This document shows positions 23,441 to 63,646 of a stretch of 64,000 nucleotides of DNA, piece after piece. The notes beneath the pieces are model-generated. The model was not told where the DNA came from, ran no database searches, and saw nothing but the letters and a program-made list of their open reading frames with translations. Position 1 is the stretch's first letter. Every line of letters begins with the position of its first letter. A program made the translations under genes and the position numbers. Where the stretch lies: the NCBI GenBank assembly GCA_963723785.1, contig CAVRSB010000004.1, positions 31,662 through 95,661 on the forward strand, read 5' to 3'. This stretch comes from an uncultured Actinomycetes bacterium. Its GTDB lineage: Bacteria; Actinomycetota; Thermoleophilia; Gaiellales; JAICJC01.

Positions 23441-23469
23441 ATAATTGGTGCCTGGCACCAATTATTCAC
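23437..23469. repeat. palindromic repeat copy A (33-bp type 1)
   Basis: GTGAATAATTGGTGCC-T-GGCACCAATTATTCAC, perfect 16-bp arms. Confidence 0.95.
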
Positions 23470-23490
23470 CGTACGCCGATCAACGACTGA

Positions 23491-23515
23491 CGCCCTGAGG
23501 CGCGGCCAGCCTCAG
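23491..23515. repeat. secondary hairpin module downstream of copy A
   Basis: CGCCCTGAGGCGC GGCCAGCCTCAG: 7-bp stem CTGAGGC/GCCTCAG with a 7-nt loop. Both halves recur around 51652-51781. Confidence 0.7.
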
Positions 23516-23642
23516 CCGTAACGAGTTCGGGACGGTCCCTCTGACAGACTGAACCATCGACAGGATCCCGACCAATGCCGGTGGATCGATTCAAGGCGGA
23601 CGCCTGGGCGCAGTTGCGTGGGCCGGCCTGGCCGCGACACTG

Positions 23643-24800
23643 GTGTTGAACGCGGGCTCGCTGCTGCTGGGCGTGCTCGATCGCTCCAGCCAGGCGGCGT
23701 TCCCCCAGCTGTTCGAGCTGCTGGTGCTGCTTGCCTACGCCGTCATGGGTGCCGTGGTTGCAAGACGACAGCCGCGAAACCCGATCGGGTGGCTGTATCT
23801 GGCCATCGGATTCGCCACCTCGCTGAACATCTTCGCCGAGCAGTACGCGGTGCGCTCGCTGGTGGCAGATCCCGGCTCATTGCCGTACCCGAAAGCCGCT
23901 CTCTGGCTGGGTTCACCGGCGCTCGACTCGCTCTTCATCCTGGTCGTCACACTGGTGCTGTTGCTGTTTCCCAACGGCCGACCGCTGACACGTCGCTGGC
24001 GATTCGCGGTGTGGATCGCGGTGGCGGGTGCCGCGCTCGGTCTCTCCGAGGCGTTCGTCGATTACCCACTGGAAGCGCCGCTGGCTGGCTACCACAACCC
24101 GCTGTTGGTCACCGGAGCGGCCGGCAGCGTGATCGGCGGCCTCTACCAGATCTCCGGACCGCTCTTGATCGGGAGCTTTTTTGCCGGCATCGCGTGCGTG
24201 GCGCTGCGATTCCGGCGGTCGCGTGGGATCGAACGCCAACAGCTCAAGTGGTTCGCGGCGGCGGTCATGACCGTGCTCGCGGTGATCGTGGTGGTGTTTG
24301 CCGCCTACCAGGCCACCGGCGACGACTACAGCGATGCGATCTTCCTGATCGGCACCTCGATCATCCCGGTTGCCACGGGGCTGGCGATGCTCCGCTACCG
24401 GTTGTACGAGATCGACGTGATCATCCGGCGGACGGTCGTCTACGCCGCGTTGATCGCGGCTCTGGCAGCGCTGTACCTTGGTGGTGTCGCCCTGCTGGGC
24501 TGGATCTTCCGCTCTGTCACCGGTCAGTCCGGGGCGCTTGCGGTGACACTCTCGACACTTTTGGTGGCGGCCGCGTTCCAGCCGCTCCGCTCCCGGATCC
24601 AGCGCACGGTCGATCACCGCTTCTATCGCCGCAAGTACGACGCCGCAGTGACGCTCGACGCCTTCAGCGGTCGCCTCCGCGAGCAGATCGACCTGGACGC
24701 GCTGCAGAGCGAGGTGCTCGGCGTGGTCACAGAGACGCTCCAGCCAAGCCAGGCTTCGCTGTGGCTGCGTACGGTCGAACCGCCGCCGGCGACGCCGTAA
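23643..24800 (+). CDS. polytopic membrane protein resembling the N-terminal sensor module of actinobacterial histidine kinases, no kinase domains
   Basis: ORF 23643..24800, about 8 TM helices, then LRYRLYEIDVIIRRTVVY...RIQRTVDHRFYRRKYD. No H-box or ATPase motifs follow. Confidence 0.6.
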   Translation: MLNAGSLLLGVLDRSSQAAFPQLFELLVLLAYAVMGAVVARRQPRNPIGWLYLAIGFATSLNIFAEQYAVRSLVADPGSLPYPKAALWLGSPALDSLFILVVTLVLLLFPNGRPLTRRWRFAVWIAVAGAALGLSEAFVDYPLEAPLAGYHNPLLVTGAAGSVIGGLYQISGPLLIGSFFAGIACVALRFRRSRGIERQQLKWFAAAVMTVLAVIVVVFAAYQATGDDYSDAIFLIGTSIIPVATGLAMLRYRLYEIDVIIRRTVVYAALIAALAALYLGGVALLGWIFRSVTGQSGALAVTLSTLLVAAAFQPLRSRIQRTVDHRFYRRKYDAAVTLDAFSGRLREQIDLDALQSEVLGVVTETLQPSQASLWLRTVEPPPATP

Positions 24801-24845
24801 GTCCACCGTAATCGCGCCGTAAACGGCGAGGCGCATGATTGCGCC

Positions 24846-25757
24846 ATGAACTCCAAGATCACAGCATTGCTCCTCGGGATCGTGACTCTGGTGGCCATCG
24901 CCGCGGTGGTCGCGGTCGGCATGGGTAGCGCCACGGGGGCGCCGGGGCTGTTCGCGAAGGTCCACGGGTGGATTGCCGTGCGGGGAGTCAAGGGGATCGT
25001 GGCATTCGACCCAGATCACCCCAAGCAGCGGGTGCTGCTCGCACCCAGGTTCGGAGATCCCCTGGCATGGTCACGGGACGGATCGAAGCTGCTGGCGGTC
25101 GCAGGCGATGAGGGCCTGTATGTGCTGCACGGAGACGGCCGCTGGGTTCGAGTCGCCCCGGACGGCTCCACCGGCGGGTCGTTCACACCCGACGGCTCAC
25201 ACGTCGTCTACGAACACAACCACACCATCTACAAGGTGAGCTCCGGCGGAGGTCGGGCCGAGGTCATCGTCAAGCGACCGGCGGGGTCCGGCTTCGGGTT
25301 TCCGGACTTCACGGGGGGACAGCTCTCACCCGACGGAACCGCGATTGTCTACGGCGGACTGAGCCTGATGCGCAGCGACGGCACCCACCGTCGGGCGCTC
25401 GCAACTCCACGGGCGATCGCAGCCCTCACCGGACACCCAGACGCCAACCAGATCGCCGCGCTGGGGTGGTTTCCGGGCAGCAAGCGGATCCTGTTCATCG
25501 CACTCAACCAGAGCACGACCCACTGCGCCCTGCTGACGGTCAATACCGACGGCACGCATCTCCGGCACTGGGGGCCGGCGAGATTCTGCCCGATTCGCGC
25601 CTCATTCTCACCCGATCGTCACCAGGTCGCATTCACGAACTCGCTGTCGCCCCTGATCGTGGCGATCACGCGAACCGACGGCAGCCATCCCCGGACGCTC
25701 AAGAACCTCGGCGTCGTCAACTCCGGGCTCTCACTCGCCTGGAGCGCTGCGGGCTGA
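24846..25757 (+). CDS. membrane-anchored TolB/PD40-like beta-propeller protein
   Basis: ORF 24846..25757. N-terminal TM anchor and repeated S/TxDGS motifs (SRDGSKL, TPDGSHV, SPDGTAI, SPDRHQV, RTDGSHP). Confidence 0.6.
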   Translation: MNSKITALLLGIVTLVAIAAVVAVGMGSATGAPGLFAKVHGWIAVRGVKGIVAFDPDHPKQRVLLAPRFGDPLAWSRDGSKLLAVAGDEGLYVLHGDGRWVRVAPDGSTGGSFTPDGSHVVYEHNHTIYKVSSGGGRAEVIVKRPAGSGFGFPDFTGGQLSPDGTAIVYGGLSLMRSDGTHRRALATPRAIAALTGHPDANQIAALGWFPGSKRILFIALNQSTTHCALLTVNTDGTHLRHWGPARFCPIRASFSPDRHQVAFTNSLSPLIVAITRTDGSHPRTLKNLGVVNSGLSLAWSAAG

Positions 25758-25762
25758 TGCTT

Positions 25763-26465
25763 TCAGCGAACCGGAGCGAGCAGCCGCTCCACCACGCCAA
25801 CCAGACCGTCAAGTGAGGCCAGCTCCGCGTCGGGTTCGACGTCGGCGGGCAGCTCCGCCCCGTTTCGGTTGATCCACACCGCCCGCATCCCCATCGCTTG
25901 CGCACCGCGAATGTCGGTGTCGAGATCGTCGCCCACGTGCACCCACCTGGCCGGGTCGCCGCCCGAGAGCTCCACCGCGTGCAGGAAGGCATCGGCGGCC
26001 GGCTTGGGATCGCCCACACGCTCGGCGTGAACGATGAACGTGAACGTCTCCGCCAGCGGCAGCCGATCGACCGGAAAATTGCCGTTGGTGATCGCCCCCA
26101 GCACGTGCCCGGCCGAGGCCAGCTGCGACAAGGCCGGCTCCACATCGGGATGCAGGACGACACTGGTCACGCGCGCATCCATCCAGGTGGCCACCATCCA
26201 CTCGGGCAGGCCCTCCTCGACCACCCCGTGGTCGGCCGAGCACCCGCCGAAACGACTCCCGCCGGAGGTCTTCGAAGCTGCCGTGCTGCTCAGCCGCCAC
26301 CTGCGCCCGGACGCGGTGAAGCTCCGCCACGTCGATCGCGCCACGGAGATCCGGCCGGCGCTCTTCCAATCCGGCCAGCGTCGCCCGCAGCGCGCCGTCC
26401 ATCATCGGCAAGAACTCCCACAGCGTCTCGTCGAGGTCGAATGACACGACGCTGGTACCGCTCAC
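25763..26465 (-). pseudogene. HAD family hydrolase, frame interrupted once
   Basis: ORFs 25809..26465 (N-terminus, FDLDETLW motif I) and 25763..26344 (C-terminus, GDDLDTDI). Junction near 26235 (extra G in a GG run). Confidence 0.75.
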
Positions 26466-26947
26466 GACCGCCCCAAGAGTGCGACCGCGTGGCAGGCCGC
26501 TCCCTCACCCCGCCCGGCGAAGCCCAGGTGGTCCGTGGTCGACGCCCGCACCGTCACTCGTGTGACCTCCACTCCGAGCACCTCCGCCAGCGCCGATCGC
26601 ATGGCATCGCGGTGAGGGGCGAGTTTGGGAGCCTGCATGATCACGATCGCGTCGACGTTTCGGATCTGCCAACCTTGCCCTGCCAGGGCTGCCCACGCGA
26701 TCCGCAGAAGCTCCAATGACGAGGCGCCCTCCAGCGCCGGATCGTCCGAGGGAAACAGCGCGCCGATATCCTCTCCGCCCGCCGCACCCAGCAGTGCGTC
26801 GGTGACGGCGTGGCACACCAGGTCGGCGTCAGAGTGCCCTGCCAGACCGCGGGCGCCGGGGATCGTAACCCCGGCCAGCACCAATGCACGCCCGTCCGCG
26901 AACGCGTGGGCGTCGAAGCCGATGCCGACACGGAGATCGTCGCTCAC
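26462..26947 (-). CDS. ispF: 2-C-methyl-D-erythritol 2,4-cyclodiphosphate synthase
   Basis: ORF 26462..27019 trimmed to GTG 26947 (GTGA overlap with the ispD stop). GFDAHAF and HSDADL motifs. Confidence 0.9.
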   Translation of the reverse strand: MSDDLRVGIGFDAHAFADGRALVLAGVTIPGARGLAGHSDADLVCHAVTDALLGAAGGEDIGALFPSDDPALEGASSLELLRIAWAALAGQGWQIRNVDAIVIMQAPKLAPHRDAMRSALAEVLGVEVTRVTVRASTTDHLGFAGRGEGAACHAVALLGRS

Positions 26948-27618
26948 GCCAGGGCCTCGGCCAGACGCAGGTCGTCCGGCTCGGTGATCTTGAGATTCGT
27001 CCGTTCGCCCGGTACCCACACAACTCGCATGCCCGCATTCTCGAGCAGGGACGAGCAGTCGGTGGCGGCGTGCAGCTCCGCCAGAGGTCGATCGTAGGCT
27101 CGCCGCAGGCAGTCGGCCCGAAATCCCTGGGGCGTCTGCACTGCGACCAGACCGTCACGCTCGAGCGTGGAGGCGATCGCCTCGCCGGCGGTGCGCTTGA
27201 TCGTGTCGGCCACCGGCAGGGCGGGCACGGCTCCGTCCGCATCGGTGAGTGCCGCCAGCACGCGCGTGACCAGATCGTGCGAGGCCAGGGGGCGCGCGGC
27301 ATCGTGCACCAGGATCAGATCAGCCGTGTCGGGCAGCTCCGCCAGACCGGCTGCCACCGATTCGGCCCGGGTGGCACCGCCTGCGATCACACTTGCGACC
27401 TTGCCCGCCACCATCTGATCGGCCAGCAGCTGGGCCGGGTCCTCCCACCCCGCCGGCACCACCAAGACCATCCGGTGGACGTCGTCGTGGTCCTCGATCA
27501 GGGTAATTGCGCGTTTCAGTAACACGTCACCCTGGAAACCGACGAACGCCTTGGGCCGGTCGGCACCAAACCGCTTGCCCTCTCCCGCCGCCACGACGAT
27601 CGCCCACGTCTGCGCCAA
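26944..27618 (-). CDS. ispD: 2-C-methyl-D-erythritol 4-phosphate cytidylyltransferase
   Basis: ORF 26944..27618 (TTG start). AAGEGKRFG, VHDAARP motifs. Confidence 0.9.
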   Translation of the reverse strand: MAQTWAIVVAAGEGKRFGADRPKAFVGFQGDVLLKRAITLIEDHDDVHRMVLVVPAGWEDPAQLLADQMVAGKVASVIAGGATRAESVAAGLAELPDTADLILVHDAARPLASHDLVTRVLAALTDADGAVPALPVADTIKRTAGEAIASTLERDGLVAVQTPQGFRADCLRRAYDRPLAELHAATDCSSLLENAGMRVVWVPGERTNLKITEPDDLRLAEALA

Positions 27619-28668
27619 CTACGACTCCGTCATGCGCGTGAAGATCATCTTGCCCGACGGCGACTGCAGCACCGAGGTGACCTGCACCGAGACGCTCGAT
27701 CCGACCTGGGAGCGACCGCCTTCGACAACCACCATGGTGCCGTCGTCCAGATAGCCGACGCCCTGGTCGGCCTCCTTGCCTTCACGGATCAGCCGCACCG
27801 TGAACTGCTCGCCCGGGAGCACCGCCGGTTTGAGCGCGTTTGCCAGCTCGTTCACGTTCAGGATCTCGACGTCCTGGATCCGCGCCAGGCGGTTCAGGTT
27901 GTAGTCGGTGGTGAGGATCCGAAGGCTGCGCTGCTTGGCCAGCTTGAGCAGCTTGGAGTCGACCTCGGGGATGTCGGGGAAGTCGACGTCGGGTACCGAG
28001 ACGGTGACCTCGCCGCGCAGCCCCTGCACCACTTCCAGGCCGCGGCGGCCACGGTTGCGCTTCAGCGGGTCAGCCGAGTCGGCCACCTGCTGCAGCTCCT
28101 TGAGCACGAACTCCGGCACCACCAGCTCGCCAGACAGGAATCCGGTCTTGACGATGTCAGCGATCCGTCCGTCGATGATCGCGGAGGTGTCGACCAGCGT
28201 GGCGGAGTCGCGGTTGGCGGCGTCCATCTCGGGCTCACCCACCGAATGGACGCCCACCAGCCGGAGGATGCCGCGATGTTTTTTGGCGCCCACCACCGCA
28301 AACGCGTACCCCAGGATCAGGAACAGCGGAAGCAGCACCCAGTCGCCGATGTACGGCAGCGAGTGCACGGGGAAGTACAGCAGCACAGCCACCAGCAGGC
28401 CCACCAGCAGGCCGACCGCGGCCACCGTGAGCTCACCCGCACTGCGAGATTGGACTGCGCGTTCAAGTCGCTTGAAGGAGCGCTGTAATCCCTTCCCGAC
28501 CAATCCGCCAACCATCCAGCCAACGGCGAAGATCAGGAGAATGATGATGCCAGCGGCGACGTACGCGTAAGAAGCCGAAAAATGATCTCGAAGCCTGGAA
28601 TACAGGCCCGCCTGTATGGCACCCAGCACAGCCAAGAGCGAGAGAACGACTCGGGATACCACCACCAT
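27619..28668 (-). CDS. PIN/TRAM domain-containing membrane protein (YacL-like)
   Basis: ORF 27619..28668. N-terminal TM helices, PIN-like core (LVDTSAIIDGRI), C-terminal TRAM-like beta domain. Conserved position upstream of ispD. Confidence 0.75.
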   Translation of the reverse strand: MVVVSRVVLSLLAVLGAIQAGLYSRLRDHFSASYAYVAAGIIILLIFAVGWMVGGLVGKGLQRSFKRLERAVQSRSAGELTVAAVGLLVGLLVAVLLYFPVHSLPYIGDWVLLPLFLILGYAFAVVGAKKHRGILRLVGVHSVGEPEMDAANRDSATLVDTSAIIDGRIADIVKTGFLSGELVVPEFVLKELQQVADSADPLKRNRGRRGLEVVQGLRGEVTVSVPDVDFPDIPEVDSKLLKLAKQRSLRILTTDYNLNRLARIQDVEILNVNELANALKPAVLPGEQFTVRLIREGKEADQGVGYLDDGTMVVVEGGRSQVGSSVSVQVTSVLQSPSGKMIFTRMTES

Positions 28669-28754
28669 CGTCTGTTCACTCCTCTGATGTGTTCTCTATG
28701 TCAACGTGTCGGTTGGGCTATCGGCCTCCGACCGCGACTCCTTGAAGGTATCGG

Positions 28755-29267
28755 CTACGCCCGCGCCTTCCGGGTGGAGCCAATGTCGTCCAGCACCTCC
28801 TCGAGATACTCGCGGGCCTCATCCTCATCCATGCCCTTGGCGTACATCAACTCGGACGCAAGAATCCGCTTGGCCTTGGAGAACATCTGCTTCTCTCCGG
28901 TCGACAGGCCCTTCTCCTGGTCGCGCTGGGCCAGGTTGCGAACAACCTCGGCCAGCTCGAACACGTCGCCGGTCTTCATCTTGTCCCGGTTGTGCTTGAA
29001 CCGCCGATTCCAGTTCTTCGGCATCTTGGTGCCGTCGCCCTGGAGCACCGCCAAAACCTCTTCGACCGTCTCCTCGCCGATTACCTTGCGCAGACCTGCC
29101 CGGTCAGCGCTGTCGGACGGGATCATCACGGTCATGTCGTTGTGCAGAATCTTGATCGTGAGGTATTCGCGTTCGGACTCGGAGTCCTTACGCACTTCCT
29201 TGGTCACAATTGTGCCCGCCCCGTGGTGCGGATACACGACCTTATCGCCGATGTCGTACAAGGCCAA
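28755..29267 (-). CDS. carD: CarD family transcriptional regulator
   Basis: C-terminal part of ORF 28755..29807. GDKVVYPHHGAGTI...EYLTIKI RNAP-interacting domain. Probable TTG start at 29267 or 29261, behind GGAAGGG. Confidence 0.85.
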   Translation of the reverse strand: MALYDIGDKVVYPHHGAGTIVTKEVRKDSESEREYLTIKILHNDMTVMIPSDSADRAGLRKVIGEETVEEVLAVLQGDGTKMPKNWNRRFKHNRDKMKTGDVFELAEVVRNLAQRDQEKGLSTGEKQMFSKAKRILASELMYAKGMDEDEAREYLEEVLDDIGSTRKARA

Positions 29268-29346
29268 ATAACCCTTCCATTGGTGCCGTGAAAAGACCCG
29301 TGCGAGCGCTTGTAGAACCGCGACCCAACAGGCGCCCAGAGTGAAC

Positions 29347-29355
29347 ATTCTATCA
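29347..29355 (-). promoter_or_regulatory. extended -10 element (TGATAGAAT) upstream of carD
   Basis: Reverse complement of ATTCTATCA, about 80 nt upstream of the proposed carD start, in a locally AT-richer stretch. No clear -35. Confidence 0.3.
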
Positions 29356-29467
29356 GAGAGCGGCTCCCGCGAGGATGAAAGAATCGACCTCATTTGCAAC
29401 ACTTCCAGGATGATTCTTGCCGTTCGTGCCAACATTGCAAAGAATCGGTCAACCTGTGCTGCGAGAG

Positions 29468-30564: not shown

Positions 30565-30589
30565 GCCGAGAGCTTACCGGCTAGGGCTC

Positions 30590-32646: not shown

Positions 32647-32679
32647 ATGAATAATTGGTGCCTGGCACCAATTCTTCAC
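32647..32679. repeat. palindromic repeat copy B (33-bp type 1, 2 mismatches)
   Basis: ATGAATAATTGGTGCC-T-GGCACCAATTCTTCAC. Confidence 0.9.
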
Positions 32680-32692: not shown

Positions 32693-32723
32693 GTGAATAC
32701 CGGTGCCTGGCACCGTTATTCAC
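32693..32723. repeat. palindromic repeat copy C (31-bp type 2, 1 mismatch)
   Basis: GTGAATACCGGTGCC-T-GGCACCGTTATTCAC, 13 nt downstream of copy B. Confidence 0.9.
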
Positions 32724-33565
32724 TAGTACGTGCCGAACTGTTTCCAGAGTTGTTCGGCGGTATCCATGCGCCGATTGCGGGCGCCGCCCTTGCGCAAGGC
32801 GACACCTGCGGCCAGTGCCTCCAGCACCACCATGGCCGTGGCCGCGCTGGCGAAGCCGTCGCGCTTTCCCTGGCAGACCAGCACGTGATTTGCCTGACCC
32901 GCGGCCGGCGCCAGCAGGTCATCGGTGATCAGCACCACCGGCGCCCCGGCCGCGCGGAACAGCCGCACCACGTCGGCGGTCACCTTCGCGTAGCGCTGGA
33001 ACGTGAAGGCAATCAGGCGGTCGCGCGGCTCGAGGTCGATCAACTGGTCGGCGATCGTCGGCTCGCCGGCAGCGATCGGCCACACGTTCGAGAGCAGCGG
33101 GTTGAGCAGGTAGTAGGCGTACTCGGCCAGCGCCGCCGACTTGCGGTGTCCGAAGATCCCGATCTTGCCGTGTCCACGAACCAGCATCTCCACGGCGGCG
33201 TCGAACTGGCGGCGATCAACGCCCGCAGCCAGCGCCTCCAGATCACCGGCTGCCTGAAAGGCGATCTGCTCGATCGGGTGGGCCGAGGGGACGGTGCCGC
33301 GCACAGCGGGCTGCAGACGGGTGATCGCCTCGGATGCCAGCGCGTCGTGCAGCTCTGCGAACCCGGCGAACCCCACCCTGGTCGAGAACCGCACCACGGC
33401 CGCCTTGCTGACCCCGGTCTTGGCGGCCAGCGACTCGGCTGTCTCGAACGGCGCTTCCGCCGGGTGCTCGAGCACATAGGTCGCAATGCGACGGTCGTTC
33501 GGCGACAGCCGATCGAGATGGGAGCGGATCAACGCTGATACCGCCCCGTCGCCGAGGTCGATCAT
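32723..33565 (-). CDS. MurR/RpiR family transcriptional regulator (HTH_6 + SIS)
   Basis: ORF 32723..33565. N-terminal HTH (IATYVLEHPAEAPFETAESLAAKTGVSKAAVVRF) plus a SIS-like domain. The stop TAG overlaps the last base of palindrome copy C. Confidence 0.8.
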   Translation of the reverse strand: MIDLGDGAVSALIRSHLDRLSPNDRRIATYVLEHPAEAPFETAESLAAKTGVSKAAVVRFSTRVGFAGFAELHDALASEAITRLQPAVRGTVPSAHPIEQIAFQAAGDLEALAAGVDRRQFDAAVEMLVRGHGKIGIFGHRKSAALAEYAYYLLNPLLSNVWPIAAGEPTIADQLIDLEPRDRLIAFTFQRYAKVTADVVRLFRAAGAPVVLITDDLLAPAAGQANHVLVCQGKRDGFASAATAMVVLEALAAGVALRKGGARNRRMDTAEQLWKQFGTY

Positions 33566-39389: not shown

Positions 39390-40459
39390 ATGAACCCGCT
39401 GACCGAGAACTGGTACATCAGGGATGTCGAGATTCCGTCCCGGATCGTGCTGGCGCCGATGGCGGGTGTCTCGGTGCAGGCGTTCCGCCGCCAGGGGCGT
39501 CGATTCGGGGCCGGGCTGGTGTGCTCGGAGATGGTTTCGTCGTGCGGGCTGTCCTACGGCAACGAGCGCACTCTGGGGTACCTGCGGATCGCCCGGGACG
39601 AGCATCCGCTGGCCGTCCAGATCTTTGGCTCCGAGCCCGAGCGGATGGCCGAGGCGGCCGAGATGGTGGTCGCGGCGGGCGCCGACATCGTCGACATCAA
39701 CTTCGGCTGCCCGGTTCGCAAGGTGACCAAGACCGGGGCCGGCGCCAGCGCGCTCGAGCAGCACGACCTCGCCTGCTCGCTTGGCCCGGGCGGTGGTGGA
39801 CGCGGTCGACGTGCCGGTGACGGTGAAGATGCGCCGCGGACTCGAGAACGGCTCGCGCACGGCTCTCGACCTGGGGCCCAAGCTCGAGGCCGAGGGGGTC
39901 GCGGCGCTGACGCTGCACCCGCGCTCGGCCAAGCAGATGTACACCGGCACCGCCGACCACACGCTCACGGCCGAGCTGGTCGAGCGCGTGTCGATTCCCG
40001 TGATCGCCTCGGGCGACATCACCGACCGCGCCCGGGCGCAGGTGGTGCTGGAGTCGACCGGCGCCGACGCGGTCATGGTCGGCCGCGGCGCGCAGGGGCG
40101 GCCGTGGGCGCTGAGCGAGATGGCCGGCGGCGAGTCGGCCGAGCCCGATCGCGCCGAGCTCTACGCCGAGCTGGTGCGGTTCATGCGCGAGGTGGTGCGG
40201 GAGATGGGCGACGAGCGCTCGGTCGGATTCCTGCGCAAGTTTTACGGCTGGTACCTGCGCGGTACCGAGGGCGCCCGCGCGGTGCGCGGCGAGCTGATGC
40301 TGTGCCAGACGGTGGACGCCGCCGAGCAGGTGCTGCTGAATGCCTGCCCCGAGGCCCGTGAGCTGCTGATCGCCCACGCGGCCGAGATCGACCTGCTGCC
40401 CGACCTCCGAGTCCGATCGCCTGCTCGACCTGCCGATCTCGATCTACGGCGGCGGGTGA
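39390..40459 (+). pseudogene. dus: tRNA-dihydrouridine synthase, frame interrupted twice
   Basis: ORFs 39390..40361 and 39781..41019. LAPMAGVS, DINFGCP, HPRS motifs. Junctions near 39775 and 40408. The high-GC3 tail (SESDRLLDLPISIYGGG) ends at TGA 40457-40459 inside palindrome copy D. Confidence 0.85.
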
Positions 40460-40487
40460 ATAACGGTGCCTGGCACCATTTATTCAC
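40456..40487. repeat. palindromic repeat copy D (32 bp; type 2 left arm, irregular right arm)
   Basis: GTGAATAACGGTGCC-T-GGCACCATTTATTCAC, between convergent dus and the GNAT gene. Confidence 0.9.
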
Positions 40488-40998
40488 CCCGACGACCTGG
40501 AGCCATTCCGGCTTGAGGCCGGGATTGACCTCGATTCGCATGCCGAGCTTGCGCATGACGCTGATCGAGGCCGAGGTTGGCGTGCTCGGTGGTGGCCACG
40601 ATCCGGGCCAGCTGCAGGTGGTCGAAGCCGAAGGCGATCAGCGCCGCAGCCGCCTCGGTGGCGTAACCCTGGCCGCGCTCGGCGGGCGCCGTTGCCCAGT
40701 ACAGACCGACCTCTGGGCGAAACCGGTGGGGATCGCTGCCGTCGCCGAGGCCGGGGATCAGCCCGAACGGCGCCAGGCACGGCACCAGCCCGACCAGTCC
40801 GACCAGCTCCCCATCGCTTTGGCGCTCCACGGCCCGTTCGCCGTAGGGCGGCTGGTTCAGATCCGCGAGCTGGGCGTATCCCGCCACGGTCCACTCGAGC
40901 CACTGGTCACGCCGCTCTCCCAGCACCCGCTGGACGCCCGCTGCATCACCGCCGGTCAGTGGACGCACCAGGAGACGTTCAGTCTCGAGCAACGGCAT
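40484..40998 (-). pseudogene. GNAT family N-acetyltransferase (RimJ/RimL-like), frame interrupted
   Basis: ORF 40480..40998 (N-terminus) continued in the frame of ORF 40242..40556 (ASISVMRKLGMRIEVNPGLKPEWLQVVG). As given the ORF stops at TAA 40480-40482. The corrected frame would stop at TGA 40484-40486. Both lie in the right arm of copy D. Confidence 0.75.
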
Positions 40999-41011
40999 CG
41001 CGCGATGATAG

Positions 41012-41042
41012 GTGAATAACGGTGCCCGGCACCGTTATTCAC
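41012..41042. repeat. palindromic repeat copy E (31-bp type 2, centre C)
   Basis: GTGAATAACGGTGCC-C-GGCACCGTTATTCAC, between the divergent GNAT and PhyH genes. Confidence 0.95.
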
Positions 41043-43516: not shown

Positions 43517-43831
43517 ATGACCATGTCGACCCTCATGGAATTGACCGTCGTGCTCCTGATCTGTCCGGCCGCCCTCGCCACGTGGGCCGACGCACGGTAC
43601 CCCAAGCTGCGGCCGCGCGAGATCCGGCGAACCACGATCCACCTCGGCATGACCGGCCTGATCGCGTTCGTCGCGATGAAGCCGCTGCTGAGCGAGATCT
43701 TCCAGCTGCTGTCCGGCCCCGCCGGGCGCGCAACCGCGCTGTGCATCTCCTGCATCGCCATCACGTACTGCCTGATGGTGTCGCTGTGGGTCGTGCGGCT
43801 CGCAACCGAGACCGCTCGCACCCGCCGCTAG
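43517..43831 (+). CDS. small membrane protein (hypothetical, 3 TM)
   Basis: ORF 43517..43831, high GC3, hydrophobic helices. Stop TAG lies 7 nt before palindrome copy F. Confidence 0.6.
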   Translation: MTMSTLMELTVVLLICPAALATWADARYPKLRPREIRRTTIHLGMTGLIAFVAMKPLLSEIFQLLSGPAGRATALCISCIAITYCLMVSLWVVRLATETARTRR

Positions 43832-43838: not shown

Positions 43839-43869
43839 GTGAATAACGGTGCCTGGCACCGTTATTCAC
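43839..43869. repeat. palindromic repeat copy F (31-bp type 2, perfect)
   Basis: GTGAATAACGGTGCC-T-GGCACCGTTATTCAC. Confidence 0.95.
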
Positions 43870-43885
43870 AACCCACCGCTCAGGC

Positions 43886-43918
43886 GTGAATAATTGGTGC
43901 CTGGCACCAATTATTCAC
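43886..43918. repeat. palindromic repeat copy G (33-bp type 1, perfect)
   Basis: GTGAATAATTGGTGCC-T-GGCACCAATTATTCAC, 16 nt downstream of copy F. Confidence 0.95.
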
Positions 43919-44575
43919 GCCATAGCTACCTGGTGGAGGGCCGCTGCGGCTTCAGCCCGGGTGCGGGCGTTGAGCTTGCGCAGGATCGCCTTCACGTGCC
44001 AGCGCACGGTCTCGGGCGACAGGTACAGCTCGGCCGCGATCTGCCCGGTGGTGTAGCCACTGGCGATCAGCCGCAGGATCTCGAGCTGGCGGGGCGTCAG
44101 CTTCTCGCGCTGCTGCGGCCGTGGAGCCAGCTCCAGGCGCTGCTCCGCGCCGCGCACCTCGTCAAGCAGGTAGGACACCATCCGGCGTGACACCGCCGCT
44201 TCGCCACCGACCACGCCCAGCGATCGCTTCGGCCAGCCGGTCGGGCGTCTGATCCTTGGTCAGGTAGCCCACCGCGCCGGCGCGCACCGCCGCCAGCATC
44301 ACCTGTGGGTCGTGCGACTCCGACAGCATCACGACCTTGACGCCTGCGCCGACGGCGTCCAGCAACCGCCGGGTGGCAAGGATGCCGCTGCCGTCCTTCA
44401 GCTCCAGATCCATCAGCACCACATCGGGACGCAGGCGCACACCCCGCTCGATCGTCTCCAGCACACTCGAAGCGGTACCCACGACCTCCATGCCGGCGCC
44501 CTCGAGCAGCGTGATCAGCCCCCGTCGAAAGAGCGGGTGATCGTCAACAACAACAATCCGGATGGGAGCCCCCAT
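43915..44575 (-). pseudogene. NarL/FixJ (LuxR) family response regulator, frame interrupted once
   Basis: ORF 44162..44575 (receiver: VVVDDHPLFR, VVLMDLELKDGSG) plus ORF 43915..44214 (LuxR HTH: LTPRQLEILRLIASGYTTGQIAAELYLSPETVRWHV). Junction near 44215. The stop TGA lies inside palindrome copy G. Confidence 0.85.
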
Positions 44576-51588: not shown

Positions 51589-51621
51589 GTGAATAATTGG
51601 TGCCTGGCACCAATTATTCAC
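51589..51621. repeat. palindromic repeat copy H (33-bp type 1, perfect)
   Basis: Identical to copies A and G. Lies in the 211-nt gap between the hydrolase gene and the 51018 gene. Confidence 0.95.
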
Positions 51622-56749: not shown

Positions 56750-56815
56750 ACGCCGAAAAACATAGAACACCCCCCAATTTCCGGGTTCACCGCTCAGCCG
56801 TGGACCGATTCTCCC

Positions 56816-58411
56816 GTGGCGCATACTGACCCAACCCCCATCACCCGCCTGCGCGGGTTGCTCGATGCCACCCGGTTGATCCGGGAAGAGCCCGACCCCG
56901 CCCGCTTGCTCGACGCGATCGCCCAGACAGTGTCGGAATCGCTGGGATATCGCTCGGTGGTGATGAACACCTACAGGCCCGCCTGGGACGACTTCGAGGT
57001 GACCGCGGTGGTGGGCAGCGATGCTGCCCGCGAGGCGCTGATGGGCGATCGGCTGCCATGGTCGGAGTGGGAGATGCTGCTGGACGCGCGGTTTGAGCGC
57101 CGCGGTGCCTACCTGATTCCCGAAGGTGAGTTCGATTGGGAGTCGAGCGCAAGCCGCACATACGTGCCCGCGACCTCGAGCCCCACCGGGTCGTGGCGGG
57201 CGGGAGACGCGCTGTTCGCCCCGCTCAAGCACTCCCGCGGCCACATCCTGGGAATCATCTCGGTGGACGAGCCGCTGTCGGGACATCGTCCCGAGGACGC
57301 GGAGCTCCAGGTGCTGGTGGCGGTCGCAGAACACGCGGCCATGGCACTCGAAGCGAGTCACGAGCACGCCGCCTCCGAGCGCCAGCAGGCCGCGCTGGGG
57401 CAGCTGCTGCAGGTGTCGTCGCAGATGACCGAGACGCTGGCAGCCGACGCCGTGCTGACCTCCATCTGCGAGGGCATCTCTGAGGCACTGGGGTTTGCCA
57501 AGGTGGCGCTGGACATCCCCGATCCCGAGACGGGAGTGATGCAGATGCACGCCGGGGTCGGTTGGGGGGCCGAGGAGCTGGCCGCCCTGACACCGCCCTC
57601 ACTGGCAGAGCTGAAGCCGCTGCTGGATCCGGCGTTCGAGATCGAGGGTTGCTACGTCATGACCCGCGACGAGGCGCTGGCCCGGCTGCCTTCGGGACTC
57701 AGCGTGTACCGGTCGGAGCGAAACGGGGTCGGCCCGTGGGCGTGGGACTGCCACTGGCTGTTGGTGCCGCTGTGGGATCGAAACGGCAACGTGAGCGGCC
57801 TGATCCGAGCCGACGAGCCACTCGATCGGCTGATGCCGGAGCGACCGATGCTGCAGACGCTGCGGGTGTTCGCGAACCACGCCACTGCGGCGCTCGACTC
57901 GGCCGCACGGTTTGAAGAGATGCGATTCCTGGCCGAGCACGACCCGCTCACGCGACTGCTCAACCGGCGCGCGTTCACCACCCGCCTCCAGGCCGCTATC
58001 GAGCGGTCAGAGCGCTACGAGGAGCAGTTCGCACTGGTGTTGTGCGACCTCGACGACCTCAAGCAGACCAACGACCGGCACGGCCACGAGGCCGGCGACG
58101 CCGCCTTGATCAGGGTCGCGATCCAGCTGTCCGGCTCGGTGCGAGGCTCCGACACCGTCTTTCGCATCGGTGGCGACGAGTTCGCACTGCTGCTGCCCTC
58201 CGCCGACGCCACCACCGTGACCGCGGTGACGGAGCGAATCGCCGCCGGCCTGAGCTCGGCGGCAGACGACCAGACACCGCTGCGGGCCAGCCTGGGCGCC
58301 TCGATCTACCCCGACGACGGCACCGACGCCGACGGCTTGTTCCACGCCGCCGACACCGCCATGTACGACGACAAGCGCGACGGCCGGCGTGAACAGGGCA
58401 AGGCGGCCTGA
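56816..58411 (+). CDS. GAF-GAF-GGDEF diguanylate cyclase
   Basis: ORF 56816..58411. Two GAF-like modules, then a GGDEF domain (DPLTRLLNRRAF, RIGGDEF) with an RxxD I-site (RGSD) 5 residues upstream. Confidence 0.9.
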   Translation: MAHTDPTPITRLRGLLDATRLIREEPDPARLLDAIAQTVSESLGYRSVVMNTYRPAWDDFEVTAVVGSDAAREALMGDRLPWSEWEMLLDARFERRGAYLIPEGEFDWESSASRTYVPATSSPTGSWRAGDALFAPLKHSRGHILGIISVDEPLSGHRPEDAELQVLVAVAEHAAMALEASHEHAASERQQAALGQLLQVSSQMTETLAADAVLTSICEGISEALGFAKVALDIPDPETGVMQMHAGVGWGAEELAALTPPSLAELKPLLDPAFEIEGCYVMTRDEALARLPSGLSVYRSERNGVGPWAWDCHWLLVPLWDRNGNVSGLIRADEPLDRLMPERPMLQTLRVFANHATAALDSAARFEEMRFLAEHDPLTRLLNRRAFTTRLQAAIERSERYEEQFALVLCDLDDLKQTNDRHGHEAGDAALIRVAIQLSGSVRGSDTVFRIGGDEFALLLPSADATTVTAVTERIAAGLSSAADDQTPLRASLGASIYPDDGTDADGLFHAADTAMYDDKRDGRREQGKAA

Positions 58412-58412
58412 C

Positions 58413-59972
58413 GTGCTCCGCGACGACCTCACATCGATCAAGCGCCTGCGCGGATTCCTCCAGGTCACCCGGCTGGTGCGCGGCGAGGAAGAGCTGTCGC
58501 TGCTGCTGGACGAGATGGCCGCGGCCATCTCCGACGCGCTCGGGTTTCGCCTGGTGGTGGTGCACATGTACCGGCCGGCCTGGGACGACTTCGAAGCCAC
58601 CACGGTGCACGGCGACGAGCAGGCACGGGCTGCGCAGCTGGAGCAGACCAACGGGTGGGAGCGGTGGTCGCCGCTTCTGGACGACCGGTTCCTCCGCGGT
58701 GGGGCGTATTTCGTGCCCCGCGGCCGCACCGACGTAGCCGACCTGCCCTCGATCAGCTCCACCGAGGACCCCAACACCTGGCATCCCGACGATCAGCTGA
58801 TCGTGCCCCTGCGCCACTCCCAGGGTCAGCTGGTGGGCATCCTGTCCGTGCACGAGCCGGTGTCGGGACGAGTACCCGGCGGCGACGAACTGGACATCCT
58901 GTCGGCCATGGCCGAACACGCCGCGCTGGCAATCCAGGGGGCCCAGGAGACTGCGGCCGCCGCCCGCCATCGCACCGCGCTGGAACAGCTGCTGACGGTG
59001 TCGTCCAAGCTCACCGAGACGTTTGCGATCGACGCCATCCTGCAGGCGGTGTGCGACGGCATCCATACGTCGCTGGGCTTCGAGAACGTCTGCATCGACC
59101 TGCCCGACCCCGAGACCGGGGCGTATCGCACCCGCGCCGCCCACGGCTGGAATGTCGACGACGCGGCCGTCAACCTGCCGATGCAGCCGGCCGAGCTGCG
59201 GCCGTTGATGGCCGCGCGCTTCGAGGTGGAGGGCTGCCACCTGATCGATCATGTGACTGCCGAGGAGCTGATCGGCGACCACCACGTCACCTATCACTCG
59301 GAGCTGCGCGGACACGGCCCCCACGCCTGGGACGATCACTGGCTGTTCGTGGTGTTGTGGTCGCGCAGCGGCGAGGTGATCGGTGTGATCTGGGTGGACG
59401 ATCCCCGCGACCGGCTGCTGCCGTCGGCGCGCAAGCTGCAGGCCCTGCGAGTGTTCGCCAACCAGGCCACCACCGCCCTGGATGCCGCCGCCCAGTACGA
59501 GGAGATGCAGTTTCTGGCGGAGCATGACCCGCTCACACGGCTCTTGAACCGGCGCGCGTTCGACGCCGAGCTGGACGCCGAGATGGCCCGGGCGGTGCGC
59601 TACGAGCACCCGCTGGCGCTGCTTTTGTGCGACCTCAACGGGTTCAAGCAGCTCAACGACGATCACGGTCACGCCGCGGGCGACCTCGCGCTGGAGCGAG
59701 TCGGAGCGGCGCTGCAGGCCACCGTCCGCACGGTCGATTCCGCGTTTCGCATCGGCGGCGACGAGTTTGCCGTGCTGCTGCCCCAAACCGACCGGGCCGA
59801 GGCGCTGGCGGTGATCGACCGGATCTCCGAAGCACTGCAGCACGATCTCGAGATCGGCAGCGTGACGGCCACCTTCGGGCTGGCCGTGTATCCCGAGGAC
59901 GGCGGCGACCCGCACCGGCTGGTACGCACCGCCGATGCCGCCATGTACGCGGCCAAACCCGCTCGCGGATAG
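58413..59972 (+). CDS. GAF-GAF-GGDEF diguanylate cyclase (tandem paralog)
   Basis: ORF 58389..59972 trimmed to GTG 58413, 1 nt after the preceding stop. Same architecture; RIGGDEF with I-site RTVD. Confidence 0.9.
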   Translation: MLRDDLTSIKRLRGFLQVTRLVRGEEELSLLLDEMAAAISDALGFRLVVVHMYRPAWDDFEATTVHGDEQARAAQLEQTNGWERWSPLLDDRFLRGGAYFVPRGRTDVADLPSISSTEDPNTWHPDDQLIVPLRHSQGQLVGILSVHEPVSGRVPGGDELDILSAMAEHAALAIQGAQETAAAARHRTALEQLLTVSSKLTETFAIDAILQAVCDGIHTSLGFENVCIDLPDPETGAYRTRAAHGWNVDDAAVNLPMQPAELRPLMAARFEVEGCHLIDHVTAEELIGDHHVTYHSELRGHGPHAWDDHWLFVVLWSRSGEVIGVIWVDDPRDRLLPSARKLQALRVFANQATTALDAAAQYEEMQFLAEHDPLTRLLNRRAFDAELDAEMARAVRYEHPLALLLCDLNGFKQLNDDHGHAAGDLALERVGAALQATVRTVDSAFRIGGDEFAVLLPQTDRAEALAVIDRISEALQHDLEIGSVTATFGLAVYPEDGGDPHRLVRTADAAMYAAKPARG

Positions 59973-60013
59973 GATCCCACGGCAATCCGACCGCTTCGAG
60001 GGGAGCCGCTCAG

Positions 60014-61174
60014 GTGGACTTCGATCTCACCGACGAGCAACGCGCGATCCAAGAGACTGTGCGCGAGTTCGTCGACCGCCGGGTGTTACCGGTGGCACAG
60101 GAAAACGACATCAATCATCACCTCGATATGGGCATCATCGAGGGCATGGCCGAGTTGGGCCTTCTGGGAGCGCCAATCCCGACCGAGTACGGCGGCGCCG
60201 GGCTCGACTTCGTGTGCGAGGCGCTGATCTGCGAGGAGATCGAGCGGGGCGAGTCGGCCTTCCGCACGCTGATCTCGGTGCATGTCGGCTTGAACTCGCT
60301 GTCGCTTTTGAAGTTCGGGTCTGAGGAGCAGAAGCAGAAGTACCTGGTGCCGATGGCCAAGGGCGAGAAGCTCGGCTGTTTTGGCCTGACCGAGCCGGCC
60401 GCCGGATCCGACGTGGCGGCGATGCTGACCAACGCGATCCGCCAGCCGGACGGCACCTACGTGCTCAACGGACAGAAGAACTGGATCTCGTACGCGACCG
60501 AGGCCGACTACGAGCTGGTGTTTGCAAAGACCGATCCCAGCGCCGCCCACAAGGGCATCTCGGCATTCATCGTGGAGCGCGAGTGGAAGGGCGTCGAGGC
60601 CCGCCAGATCCCGAACAAGCTGGGCATCTGGGCAGGGTCGACCGGCGAGCTGTTCTTCTCCGACGTGCACATCCCCGCCGAGAACCGGGTGGGCGAGGAG
60701 GGCGAGGGCTTCAAGATCGCGATGAACTCACTCGACCAGGGCCGCTTCACCGTCGCAGCCGGCGCGGTCGGCGTGATCCGCGCGTGCCTGGAGGCGTCGG
60801 TCAAGTACGCCAACGAGCGCAGCACCTTCGGCCAGGAGATCGGCAAGTACCAGTTCGTGCAGGACATGATCGCCGACATGGTGCTTGGCTATGAGACCTC
60901 GCGGCTCTTGGTGATGCAGGCCGCCGCCGCCAAGGACAAGGGCGTTCGCAACACCCGCGAGACGTCGCTGGCCAAGTGGCACGCCACCGAGAGCGCGTTC
61001 GACGCCGCCAACAAGGCCATCCAGGTGCACGGCGCCTACGGCTACTCGGCCGAGTACCCGGTGGAGCGCTACTTCAGAAACAGCCGCGCGCCGATCATCT
61101 ACGAAGGCACCACCCAGATCCACAAGATGATGCAGGCAGAGCACGCACTCGGATATCGCAAGCTCAATGGCTGA
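60014..61174 (+). CDS. acyl-CoA dehydrogenase
   Basis: ORF 59627..61174 trimmed to GTG 60014 behind GAGGGGAG. GCFGLTEPAAGSD, QIHGAYGY-type C-terminus, catalytic YEGT. Confidence 0.9.
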   Translation: MDFDLTDEQRAIQETVREFVDRRVLPVAQENDINHHLDMGIIEGMAELGLLGAPIPTEYGGAGLDFVCEALICEEIERGESAFRTLISVHVGLNSLSLLKFGSEEQKQKYLVPMAKGEKLGCFGLTEPAAGSDVAAMLTNAIRQPDGTYVLNGQKNWISYATEADYELVFAKTDPSAAHKGISAFIVEREWKGVEARQIPNKLGIWAGSTGELFFSDVHIPAENRVGEEGEGFKIAMNSLDQGRFTVAAGAVGVIRACLEASVKYANERSTFGQEIGKYQFVQDMIADMVLGYETSRLLVMQAAAAKDKGVRNTRETSLAKWHATESAFDAANKAIQVHGAYGYSAEYPVERYFRNSRAPIIYEGTTQIHKMMQAEHALGYRKLNG

Positions 61175-62055
61175 TCAGCGGCTGGTGGAACTGGACGACG
61201 GCGGCGTGCTGAGCGTCGTCGAGCTGGGAAGCGGGCATCCGCTGGTGCTGCTGCACGGCGGTCCCGGCCTCGATCACCAGGAGTTCCGGCCGTGGCTGGA
61301 TCCGCTGGCCGAGCAGGGCCTGCGGCTGATCATGGTGGATCAGCGCGGCCAGGGTGCGTCCCCTCGGGTCGACCCGGCCGAGTTGACGATCTCGAAGCTG
61401 GCCCAGGACATCGACCGGCTGGCGCGGGCGCTGCAGCTCGACGATTACGCGGTGCTGGGCCACTCGTTCGGTGCCGTGGTCGCGCTCTAGCCATGCGCTC
61501 GAGCGGGGCACCGCCTCGCAGTATGTGATCTCGTCAGGGGCGGCGTCCAGCGAGGCGCTGGTGGCCGACATCGAGCGCGAGCTGGGCCGGTTCGAGCCGG
61601 CCTCCATGCGCGATCAGATCAAGCGCAGCTTCGAGGCGGAGGCAACGCTCACCACCGTCGAGCAGGCCCGGGCCGTTTCAGAGGCGCAGATGCCGTTCCA
61701 CTTCTGGGAGCTGGGCGATGCCTACAGCGCGTTCGTGCAGGCCGACAAGACGCTGTACGCCCCCGAGGTGCTGGCCCACTTCGCCGCCAACGGCTACGGC
61801 GCGTTCGAGTGGGTCGATCACCTGCGCTGGATCCGAAAGCCGATGCTGGTGATCGCCGGCCGGTACGACCGCACCTGCACGCTGGCGCGGTCACAGGAGA
61901 TCCACGCCGAGGTCGAGGGCTCCGAGCTGGTGGTGATCGAGAAGGCCGCCCACATGACCTATGTGGAGCAGCCCAAGGCATATCTGAGCGCGGTGCGCTC
62001 CTGGTTCATCAGCCAGGGCGTGTTGCCGGATCCAACGCTTCCGACTGCGGCCTGA
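61167..62055 (+). pseudogene. alpha/beta hydrolase (proline iminopeptidase-like), frame interrupted once
   Basis: ORF 61167..61490 (LLHGGPG, GHSFG) plus ORF 61471..62055. Junction near 61485. The start overlaps the acyl-CoA dehydrogenase stop. Confidence 0.75.
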
Positions 62056-62863
62056 GGCTCGGGTGGAGATGATCGAGCGCCGGTAGCGACGCCCGGATCT
62101 GGGCGAGCCGCTCGAAATCCAGGTCGGCAGTGATCACGCCGTCGCCGTCGGGCGACTGTGCCAGCACCGTGCCCCACGGGTCGATGATCATGCTGTGGCC
62201 GTAGGACGGCTTGTTGCGACCGCCCGGGAAGCCGTGCTGGCCGGTGGCGAGCACGTAGGCCTGGTTTTCGATCGCGCGCGCCCGCAGCAGCACCTCCCAG
62301 TGGGCCATGCCGGTGTGCAGCGTGAAGTTGGACGGCACCGTCAGCACGGTGGCGCCGCCGCCCAGGGTGAGCAGCCGGTAGAGCTCGGGGAAACGCAGGT
62401 CGTAGCAGACGGTCAGCCCGTAGCGGACGCCCTCGATATCGACCACCACCGGGTCTGATCCGGGCTCGGTGCCGTCCGACTCGCGGTAGCTGTGGCCGCC
62501 CACATCGACGTCGAACAGATGGATCTTGGTGTAGCTGCCGATCCGGTTGCCGTCGCGGTCGTACACGATCTCGACATTGCCGACGCGCTCGCCGGCTTCG
62601 ATCGCGATCGAGCCGCCGATCAGGTTGACGCGATGCTCGCGGGCCCACCCCGCCATCGCCTCGACCGTCTCGCCGGAGTCGATCCGCTCGGCTTCGCGGC
62701 GCATGCCCTCGCCGTCCACCCAGGCGTTCCACTTCTCCGGCAAGAGGATCACGTCGGCGCCGCGGCCGGCGGCCTCGGCCACCAGCGGCGCCATGTCGCG
62801 CACGCTGTCGCTCTTCTCGGGGCGGGCGGCAAACTGGATGCAGGCGGCGCGGACGATGGTCAT
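62009..62863 (-). CDS. carbon-nitrogen hydrolase (nitrilase superfamily) protein
   Basis: ORF 62009..62863. Glu-Lys-Cys triad context (LLPEKW, YTKIHLFD, VCYDLRFPE). Confidence 0.85.
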   Translation of the reverse strand: MTIVRAACIQFAARPEKSDSVRDMAPLVAEAAGRGADVILLPEKWNAWVDGEGMRREAERIDSGETVEAMAGWAREHRVNLIGGSIAIEAGERVGNVEIVYDRDGNRIGSYTKIHLFDVDVGGHSYRESDGTEPGSDPVVVDIEGVRYGLTVCYDLRFPELYRLLTLGGGATVLTVPSNFTLHTGMAHWEVLLRARAIENQAYVLATGQHGFPGGRNKPSYGHSMIIDPWGTVLAQSPDGDGVITADLDFERLAQIRASLPALDHLHPSLRPQSEALDPATRPG

Positions 62864-62872
62864 GGTGGAAGC

Positions 62873-63608
62873 CTAGTCCGGTTCGCTCTTCTTGGTCGAT
62901 GACTGCCGCGAAGGCGATGGCACAGGCCACGAACAGGATCGCGGCCTGCTCGAGTGCCATCGTGATCGCCCCCACCTCCTGGTCACGCAGGGCCGAGAAG
63001 CCCCACAGCTTGGGGGTGTCCAGGTAGAAGTGGTAGATCGGCGACTGGGCCAGTGCGAGCACCAGTGACAGCGGTGAGGCGGCGAAGAAGGCGATCAGCA
63101 GGTATCCCAGCCGGGCCGGCGGCCGCATCCGCCCGGGCGACAGCACCGCCCACCAGAACACCAGCCCGGCGAGCACGAAGATCACGTGCTCGACACCCAG
63201 CGCCCAGTGGTGTCGCAGGGCGTAGTCGTAGAACGCGGGGACGTGCAGGCCGTACCAGGCGGCCAGCCAGAAGACCAGCGCGAACACGGGGTTGGTGGCG
63301 GCCCGCACCACGGTGTGACGCTCGGCCATCGCGAACATCGCAGGAGTCAGCCCCAGCACCAGAAGCGGCGGCGCCCAGTCGGCGATGACCACGTTTTGGA
63401 GCAGGTGGAAGCTGACCATCGACGTCAGCGCGAGATGCTCGATCGGGGAGAGCAGGGCAACTGCGATCAGCCCCAGTCCGGCGGCGAAGGCGGCAATCCG
63501 ATACCACGGGGTGGGCTCGCCGCGGCGGCCCAGCGCCCGCACCACCAGCCCGTAGTCGACCGCCACGATCGCGATCGCGAGCATCCACTCCCAGTCGAAC
63601 ACGAACAC
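62873..63608 (-). pseudogene. cytochrome c oxidase assembly factor CtaG-like membrane protein; 3' end restored by one indel correction
   Basis: N-terminal about 245 aa of ORF 61959..63608 are polytopic (7 TM). The rest of that ORF overlaps the nitrilase gene in another frame and is Arg-rich nonsense. One base removed near 62885 gives stop TAG 62873-62875. Confidence 0.6.
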
Positions 63609-63614
63609 CCACGG

Positions 63615-63646
63615 GTGAATAAACGGTGCCTGGCACCGTTATTCAC
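63615..63646. repeat. palindromic repeat copy I (32 bp, type 2 with one extra A in the left arm)
   Basis: GTGAATAAACGGTGCC-T-GGCACCGTTATTCAC, between the ctaG-like start and the clpS stop. Confidence 0.9.

Follow-up and report, generated by a model that had tools for sequence, protein, structure and literature searches.

Polar chromosomal motifs such as Chi and KOPS are skewed with replication direction, at about 75% or more, and small palindromic repeats, including the repetitive extragenic palindromes (REP), TRIT and similar families, are usually taken as strand-symmetric punctuation. TRIT, the "Tuberculosis Rho-independent terminator" of Mycobacterium, is described as comprising 147 palindromic copies, most of them bidirectional, whose position is that of the stop codon (Gardner et al. 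2011, PMC3152330). A link between a hairpin and replication is documented for the attC sites of integrons, in which the identity of the hairpin strand is tied to replication (PMC5371416). The family considered here consists of palindromes of 31-33 nt, nine copies of which lie in a 64,000-nt stretch (the window) of the genome of an uncultured Actinomycetes bacterium of the order Gaiellales, corresponding to positions 31662-95661 of contig C4 (CAVRSB010000004.1) of assembly GCA_963723785.1. The palindrome has an odd centre, a single A or T, and the strand on which the A is found is biased about 3:1; this polarity is genome-wide and statistical, and it follows a chromosome-scale strand asymmetry.

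The window contains nine occurrences of the core GGTGCCNGGCACC, where 0.78 would be expected by chance, and all nine cores are contained in a 31-33-nt palindrome of the form GTGAATAA(TT/C/..)GGTGCC-N-GGCACC(AA/G/..)TTATTCAC. The whole assembly (1.78 Mb, 29 contigs, 68% GC) contains 134 copies whose centre is T (83) or A (51), and one full-arm copy with a C centre; the odd centre base lies in the loop of the hairpin and is confined to A or T. About 135 copies could be placed with respect to genes: 64 are found in convergent, 51 in tandem and 5 in divergent intergenic regions, and 16 within called open reading frames (ORFs). Stop codons are often contained in the arms; they typically lie 8-20 nt from the centre, and in convergent pairs there is one at such a distance on either side. 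The palindromes can be classed as REP/TRIT-like hairpin repeats of gene ends: as in REP elements, they are short, extragenic, present in high copy number and located mainly at gene 3′ ends, and as in TRIT, the palindrome is bidirectional and narrowly placed at or just inside the stop codon. The predicted RNA hairpin is strong (-20.6 to -21.1 kcal/mol, z about -7); a check for the unpaired U-tract of a canonical intrinsic terminator showed that the sole U-rich run, UUAUU, belongs to the stem itself, and no Rfam family matched in the window. When the copies were oriented by their centre, every mirrored position of arms and flanks, up to 40 nt, was symmetric (all p>0.09), and no hidden one-sided flank, target, tail or 5′ tetranucleotide emerged from the oriented copies. 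The centre base is the only strand-asymmetric position of the element.

On the + strand of the window the centre is T in eight of the nine copies and C in one (position 41027), never A or G; these counts, reported by a first-pass annotation of the window, were reproduced when the nine copies were recounted. The probability of 0.008 that it had attached to this co-orientation was somewhat optimistic, although the bias is real: four of the copies form two tandem pairs and, because all 14 tandem clusters of neighbouring copies in this genome are concordant in centre state, only about six independent T loci remain, for which p is ~0.03. Co-orientation is also not universal, as indicated by the 83 T and 51 A centres of the genome; the window has T eight times because the + strand of its contig is the C-rich (lagging) strand. 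Mapping of all copies against GC skew, which the same annotation had proposed, gave a strongly non-random distribution, which switches between contigs of opposite skew. Indeed, the G-rich strand carries the A centre in 99 of the 134 copies (~74%; Fisher p ~1e-6 against local GC skew, computed over 25 kb on either side). The bias is retained in the 64 convergent intergenic copies alone (A:T of 49:15 on the G-rich strand), where it is informative because transcription cannot decide the state. Contigs with negative skew are rich in T (T:A of 13:2 in C4, 6:0 in C9 and 10:1 in C24) and those with positive skew in A (1:6 in C6, 0:4 in both C13 and C28); the signs agree in 22 of the 24 non-tied contigs, with a Spearman rho of -0.75 between T fraction and skew, and in 21 of 23 if C29, which is 90% identical to part of C13, is left out.

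For independent tests, tandem copies were collapsed to 118 clusters. The centre state was associated with total skew (p=5e-6), with skew corrected for the coding strand (p=6e-4) and with the gene-strand fraction of the region (p=5e-4). When modelled jointly by logistic regression, corrected skew (p=0.018) and gene-strand fraction (p=5e-4) each contributed independently. These two predictors are only weakly correlated (r=0.18), which is what two noisy indicators of a single hidden variable would be expected to show. Predictive power climbs steadily from 1.5 kb on either side of the copy to the scale of the contig, where it is best, which indicates a chromosome-scale rather than an operon-scale cause. 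Contig C24, with its single A centre among 11, has negative corrected skew and no gene-strand bias (0.52). The G-rich strand of the respective contig carries 64.8% of coding bases, a share that fits the usual identification of the G-rich, gene-rich strand with the leading strand, which is presumed here. We infer that the asymmetry behind the polarity is replication itself, and a replication-linked centre base is the best reading of these data, to which about an even chance of being correct is assigned. The earlier suggestion that the centre tracks replication direction is thus supported, though only through its proxies, skew and gene-strand bias, with the exception of the first 137 kb of contig C3, which do not fit.

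The family was also followed in relatives of this bacterium. A scan of species representatives recovered it from uncultured Actinomycetes metagenome-assembled genomes (MAGs) of the MFD series and from Gaiellales/Thermoleophilia MAGs. Among 117 clusters of these relatives, each examined with 8 kb of context, T centres occurred where skew was negative and + strand genes were few, and A centres under the opposite conditions (p=6e-4, 3e-3 and 4e-3), and polarity was clear in two related MAGs (26/36 and 21/29).

Comparison of orthologous copies revealed that the centre changes in place. Copies of this genome were paired with their orthologues in related MAGs, at 85-96% flank identity, and 8 of the 37 pairs were discordant in their centre, always as A versus T; three of these eight pairs have no difference in any base of the arms. 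When whole loci were compared, repeat centres had undergone A<->T change in 7 of 38 cases and change to G or C in none. For ordinary CCWGG sites, A<->T change was seen in 1 of 783 (0.13%) and change to G or C in 25; at other W sites A<->T change affected about 0.45%, and changes to G or C were ~10 times as many. Such exclusive A<->T change reads as the signature of an inversion-like event that swaps the centre for its complement. Point mutation and sequencing error specific for CCWGG were discarded as causes of the flips, since the pattern in repeat centres and in ordinary sites is unlike either. If the state changes at fixed sites on this time scale, the polarity would not be a frozen record of insertion, and a bias that is still operating would have to maintain it; the polarity would accordingly be a dynamic equilibrium of in-situ flips. 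A separate observation on the same pairs is that orthologous copies often differ in subtype, 31- versus 33-nt, with both arms changed together, as at C4:153148 and C6:29284, and that divergence per site is 11% in the arms versus 6.9% in the flanks; this suggests whole-copy replacement or hairpin-templated correction.

Several observations weigh against replication as the determinant. Neither the origin nor the terminus can be located in the assembly, so that replication direction is inferred from skew and gene-strand bias only: in this incomplete MAG no homologue of dnaA, dnaN, gyrB or recF was found, rnpA gave only a weak match, in C18, and there is no dif-like site. Contig C20 has centres reading TTT and then AAA, and it holds no origin, because its cumulative skew is monotonic. 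The rule is true of only the ~74% of copies given above. The first 137 kb of C3 contain clusters with 6 T and 10 A centres, against 16 T and 3 A at 137-399 kb of the same contig, and in sign their GC skew (negative), corrected skew and gene-strand bias do not differ from those of the rest of C3; this region is not an assembly slip, since relatives have several of its A states in common. Two related MAGs show little polarity (10/19 and 11/19), and the nearest MAGs have orthologous copies in common with this genome, which makes them not fully independent replicates. Short Illumina contigs from soil metagenomes (mean 3 kb) show no association with skew (42/96), and at the ~3-kb scale the genome itself likewise shows little. 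Most flips were observed in the consensus of long-read MAGs, compared with 0 of 9 Illumina pairs at 85-97% identity, and their rate is uncertain. Finally, discordant neighbours less than 300 nt apart are arranged as A (left) and then T (right) in 10 of the 11 such pairs of related MAGs and in all 3 from metagenome contigs; examples are loci L038 (CAVSFZ28 88264/88310), L044, L098, L023 and L056, and, from the metagenomes, loci in the range L109-L199. This order is unaltered by reverse complementation, and replication direction therefore cannot explain it.

The arrangement of discordant neighbours, nearly always with A read from the side of the nearer gene, leads to the rival that survives best, although it is still judged unlikely. 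According to this explanation, the loop base is selected as A in the RNA of the terminated gene, and the correlation with contig skew is secondary to the bias of genes and expression towards the leading strand. The location of the elements at gene 3′ ends agrees with it, as do the first 137 kb of C3, whose centres match the local gene context, and a weak trend in the direction that it predicts: the centre is A in 41% of the copies at which only a + strand gene ends and in 23% of those at which only a - strand gene ends (Fisher p=0.17), with similar trends in relatives. In the logistic model, however, local gene direction is non-significant both alone (p=0.11) and after the regional predictors (p=0.56); gene-strand bias predicts worst at 1.5 kb on either side and best at contig scale; and the marked T excess of C24 occurs in a contig devoid of gene-strand bias. 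Moreover, of the 36 copies that follow leading-strand genes, 29 have A on the sense strand, compared with only 7 of the 24 that follow lagging-strand genes, which corresponds to the ~74% and 26% predicted by a replication rule and not to the majority of A in both classes that a transcription rule requires. A difference in stability between A- and T-loop hairpins has no computed support, the nearest-neighbour DNA and RNA energies being identical, and selection between A and U loops lacks this basis as well. Local transcription was thus rejected as the determinant of the centre, on the logistic model, on the copies after lagging-strand genes and on the trend with scale. The first-pass annotation had come to the same view in the window, and its claim holds there: the centre is the same whichever strand the neighbouring gene is on, both in copy A, after a + strand phosphoesterase gene, and in copies C, G and I, at - strand genes. 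The order of discordant neighbours suggests a second, local rule by which each copy reads A from the side of the nearer gene; possibly, a weaker local effect of the transcribed side is superimposed on the replication-linked polarity.

A quite unlikely alternative is that the polarity was frozen at insertion, when a strand-specific single-strand transposase, an IS200/IS605 TnpA or a RAYT-like Y1 enzyme, would have placed the strand with the A loop into the lagging-strand template. An orientation bias of IS200/IS605 elements linked to replication is documented (PMC3971601), the size, copy number and position of the palindromes are REP-like, and the direction is compatible, A on the G-rich strand being lagging-strand template sequence. 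On the other hand, a Y1/RayT homologue was detected neither by a motif scan nor by tblastn and phmmer searches that used E. coli RayT as query, nor by a hidden Markov model of 120 enterobacterial RayTs, the latter being a narrow model applied to the 1.78 Mb of this incomplete genome and to 0.85 Mb from relatives. The assembly also yielded no TnpA-like ORF, and its copies no distinct left and right ends and no one-sided target; centre-oriented copies lack the asymmetric flank, target or 5′ tetranucleotide that this insertion would imply, and orthologous copies are unlike in centre state. Insertion of the IS200/IS605 type, which had been put forward as an alternative cause of the co-orientation, is therefore not sustained. 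The order of subtypes in tandem pairs also does not switch with the centre: a link between the two was considered and rejected, 31-nt followed by 33-nt being found with T as well as with A. This order is an observation in its own right, as in 12 of 14 pairs (e.g. 43839-43918 of the window, C3:33570/33615 and C9:55239/55285) the + strand has the 31-nt type first and the 33-nt type second, regardless of centre base or contig skew, which is odd since the orientation of contigs is arbitrary.

An artefact or chance, in the form of an unreliable long-read consensus at a perfect hairpin, or of local copying with a coincidental link to skew, is considered improbable. In its favour, long reads seem to underlie the MAG studied here and those of the relatives in which the effect is seen, the gene calls of this genome are fragmented, the Illumina metagenome contigs show neither the skew association nor as many flips, and the bin may hold two related strains, as the 90% identity of C29 and C13 indicates. 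Nevertheless, a consensus error is blind to contig skew and gene-strand bias, and the agreement extends to nearly all contigs; ordinary CCWGG sites of the same assemblies hardly ever change between A and T; local copying alone would not match skew between contigs of arbitrary orientation; and the Illumina contigs also contain both states, A-then-T pairs and some flips. In these Illumina-only contigs the centre was the same in 12 of 12 near-identical pairs and in 9 of 9 pairs at 85-97% identity, and it differed in 2 of 9 pairs with flank identity below 85%. The flips are taken as real, and their rate in long-read MAGs may be inflated. As regards assembly quality, gene calls are short (median 205 aa, 80% coding), and the MAG is incomplete and probably affected by frameshift errors. 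Positions 9509-18911 of C29 and 1-9397 of C13 match at 90% identity over 9.4 kb, a stretch that contains an orthologous palindrome of identical centre, and may represent bin fragments of two related strains or a diverged duplication.

The weakest rival, that a general mutational skew or Dcm-type methylation of CCWGG sets the centre base, has in its favour that the centre forms CCWGG and that strand-biased mutation is universal, but it is largely refuted and deemed very improbable, as AT skew in bulk sequence runs the other way, CCWGG sites that do not belong to the repeats are unbiased and stable, the frequency of CCWGG is as expected and a C5-methyltransferase motif set was not found. Outside the repeats, A lies on the G-rich strand in 47-49% of CCWGG sites; the figures for GCCWGGC are 49.6% in coding and 60% in intergenic DNA, where it is mildly A-rich, so that neither oligomer is skewed wherever present, as a polar motif would be. 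In bulk sequence A exceeds T on the C-rich strand, where the repeat centre is T, and for this reason, together with the lack of bias in CCWGG, CWG and GWC controls, general mutational skew was rejected. In the assembly, observed/expected ratios are 0.98 for CCAGG and 1.00 for CCTGG, and no ORF of this incomplete assembly has C5-methyltransferase motifs I, IV and VI in order. The remark that the centre forms a Dcm-type site is therefore correct at the level of sequence, but relevance of methylation has no support, ordinary CCWGG being neither polar nor prone to flip. Among other short palindromes of the assembly, GGWCC is strongly avoided (observed/expected 0.27-0.28), as is CTAG (0.36), while CCWGG and GATC occur as expected; avoidance of GGWCC suggests, on word counts, an AvaII-type restriction system in the lineage.

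Returning to replication-linked polarity, a mechanism can be proposed, although the specific claim, a two-state switch set by the replication fork through strand switching and NucS specificity, is speculative and rather unlikely as it stands. The centre state reveals the orientation of an element that is symmetric in all other positions, and either a strand switch or a recombination event between its arms would turn the centre into its complement. In a nascent strand such a switch would leave an A/A or T/T mismatch at the centre. In E. coli, the leading strand is the more frequent site of template switching at inverted repeats (PMC6357072), and the actinobacterial mismatch endonuclease NucS/EndoMS cuts G/T, G/G and T/T mismatches (PMC6159521). 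If strand switching were likewise commoner in leading-strand synthesis here, and if NucS removed T/T but not A/A, A opposite A would persist, and the strand with the more frequent switches, i.e. the leading strand, would become enriched in A; this prediction is in agreement with the data. A congeneric relative encodes NucS (locus L053, 6339-7004, - strand; Pfam NucS_N and NucS_C). Within L053 6339-7076, this gene starts ~45 nt from a palindrome copy, and its product has a C-terminal LTLFE clamp-like motif.

The nine copies of the window are described below in window coordinates, with the identities of the flanking genes backed by Pfam matches. Copy A (23437..23469, centre 23453 = T) is a perfect palindrome of 33 nt, and the TGA of its left arm is the stop codon of the + strand phosphoesterase gene (22655-23440). 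Copy B (32647..32679, centre 32663 = T), of the 33-nt type with two arm mismatches, lies between the 3′ end of an RpiR gene and the start of a radA-like gene, both on the - strand; 45 nt from it, copy C (32693..32723, 31-nt type, centre 32708 = T) adjoins the stop of this - strand RpiR/SIS regulator (32723-33565). Copy D (40456..40487, centre 40471 = T) is 32 nt long, with arms that differ by one inserted base, and is located directly past the dihydrouridine synthase (Dus) domain of a + strand ORF (39781-41019) that reads through it. In this ORF the domain is confined to residues 1-187, and the tail crosses copy D in the only stop-free frame and continues to copy E; either the true Dus gene ends near copy D or the palindrome sits within a coding tail. 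Copy E (41012..41042, 31-nt type), with its C centre at 41027, is the sole full-arm copy of the whole assembly with C or G at this position. Copy F (43839..43869, 31-nt type, centre 43854 = T) follows a + strand ORF (43517-43831), and copy G (43886..43918, 33-nt type, centre 43902 = T), 48 nt away, contains in its right arm the stop of a - strand LuxR/GerE regulator gene (43915-44214). Copy H (51589..51621, centre 51605 = T) is a 33-nt perfect palindrome with the same sequence as copy A. Copy I (63615..63646, 32 nt, centre 63631 = T) has the stop of a - strand ClpS gene (63643-63948) in its right arm.

A single loop base thus gives chromosome-scale polarity to a perfect palindrome, and its in-place flips seem far faster than ordinary mutation. 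If the polarity is true on a closed genome, the centre base would offer a simple way to read replichore orientation from the sequence of uncultured Actinomycetota; the polarity would also mean that gene-end hairpins interact with the replication fork, and it would provide a natural read-out of strand-switch events and of an unusual mismatch specificity of NucS. Should the switch and NucS model hold, the repeats would be natural recorders of replication direction and the genomic footprint of NucS specificity. As far as could be found, a polar, flipping centre base has no description for REP/TRIT-like repeats.

Compared with described systems, the family resembles TRIT in having about 150 conserved palindromes per genome, in its placement on stop codons and in occurring in a high-GC actinobacterium; its sequence is unlike that of TRIT, which is reported as restricted to Mycobacterium, and the portion of the TRIT report considered here describes no strand polarity of the centre base (PMC3152330). 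With REP/BIME and REPIN-RAYT elements (Bertels and Rainey 2011, PMC3116915) it shares short, dispersed gene-end palindromes that form hairpins and often occur as pairs tens of bases apart. REPs, however, are imperfect palindromes with an intrinsic orientation, a conserved 5′ tetranucleotide and a RAYT gene, whereas here arms and flanks are symmetric, without intrinsic asymmetry, and RAYT was not found; orientation bias relative to replication is not discussed in the REPIN-RAYT paper (PMC3116915). The attC sites are imperfect palindromes that act as folded single strands and in which a few unpaired bases set the active strand, whose placement with respect to replication matters, but they are recombined by IntI in cassette arrays, while the copies described here are dispersed at gene ends and no integrase or array was seen. 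Quasipalindrome template switching (PMC6357072) and NucS (PMC6159521) could together bias A<->T flips by strand; neither process is known to flip the centre base of a palindrome, and the link to them is proposed here. The strand skew is comparable to that of Chi and KOPS, of about 75% or more; these are asymmetric oligomers skewed wherever present, while GCCWGGC outside the repeats is not skewed in coding DNA. The IS200/IS605 elements are also hairpin elements, and their orientation correlates with replication-fork direction (Ton-Hoang 2010, in the summary of PMC3971601), a bias that is found here too, by proxy. Those elements are of kilobase size, with a TnpA gene, distinct ends and an orientation fixed at insertion, whereas the palindromes of this family are 31-33 nt long, symmetric save for one base, and change their state in situ.

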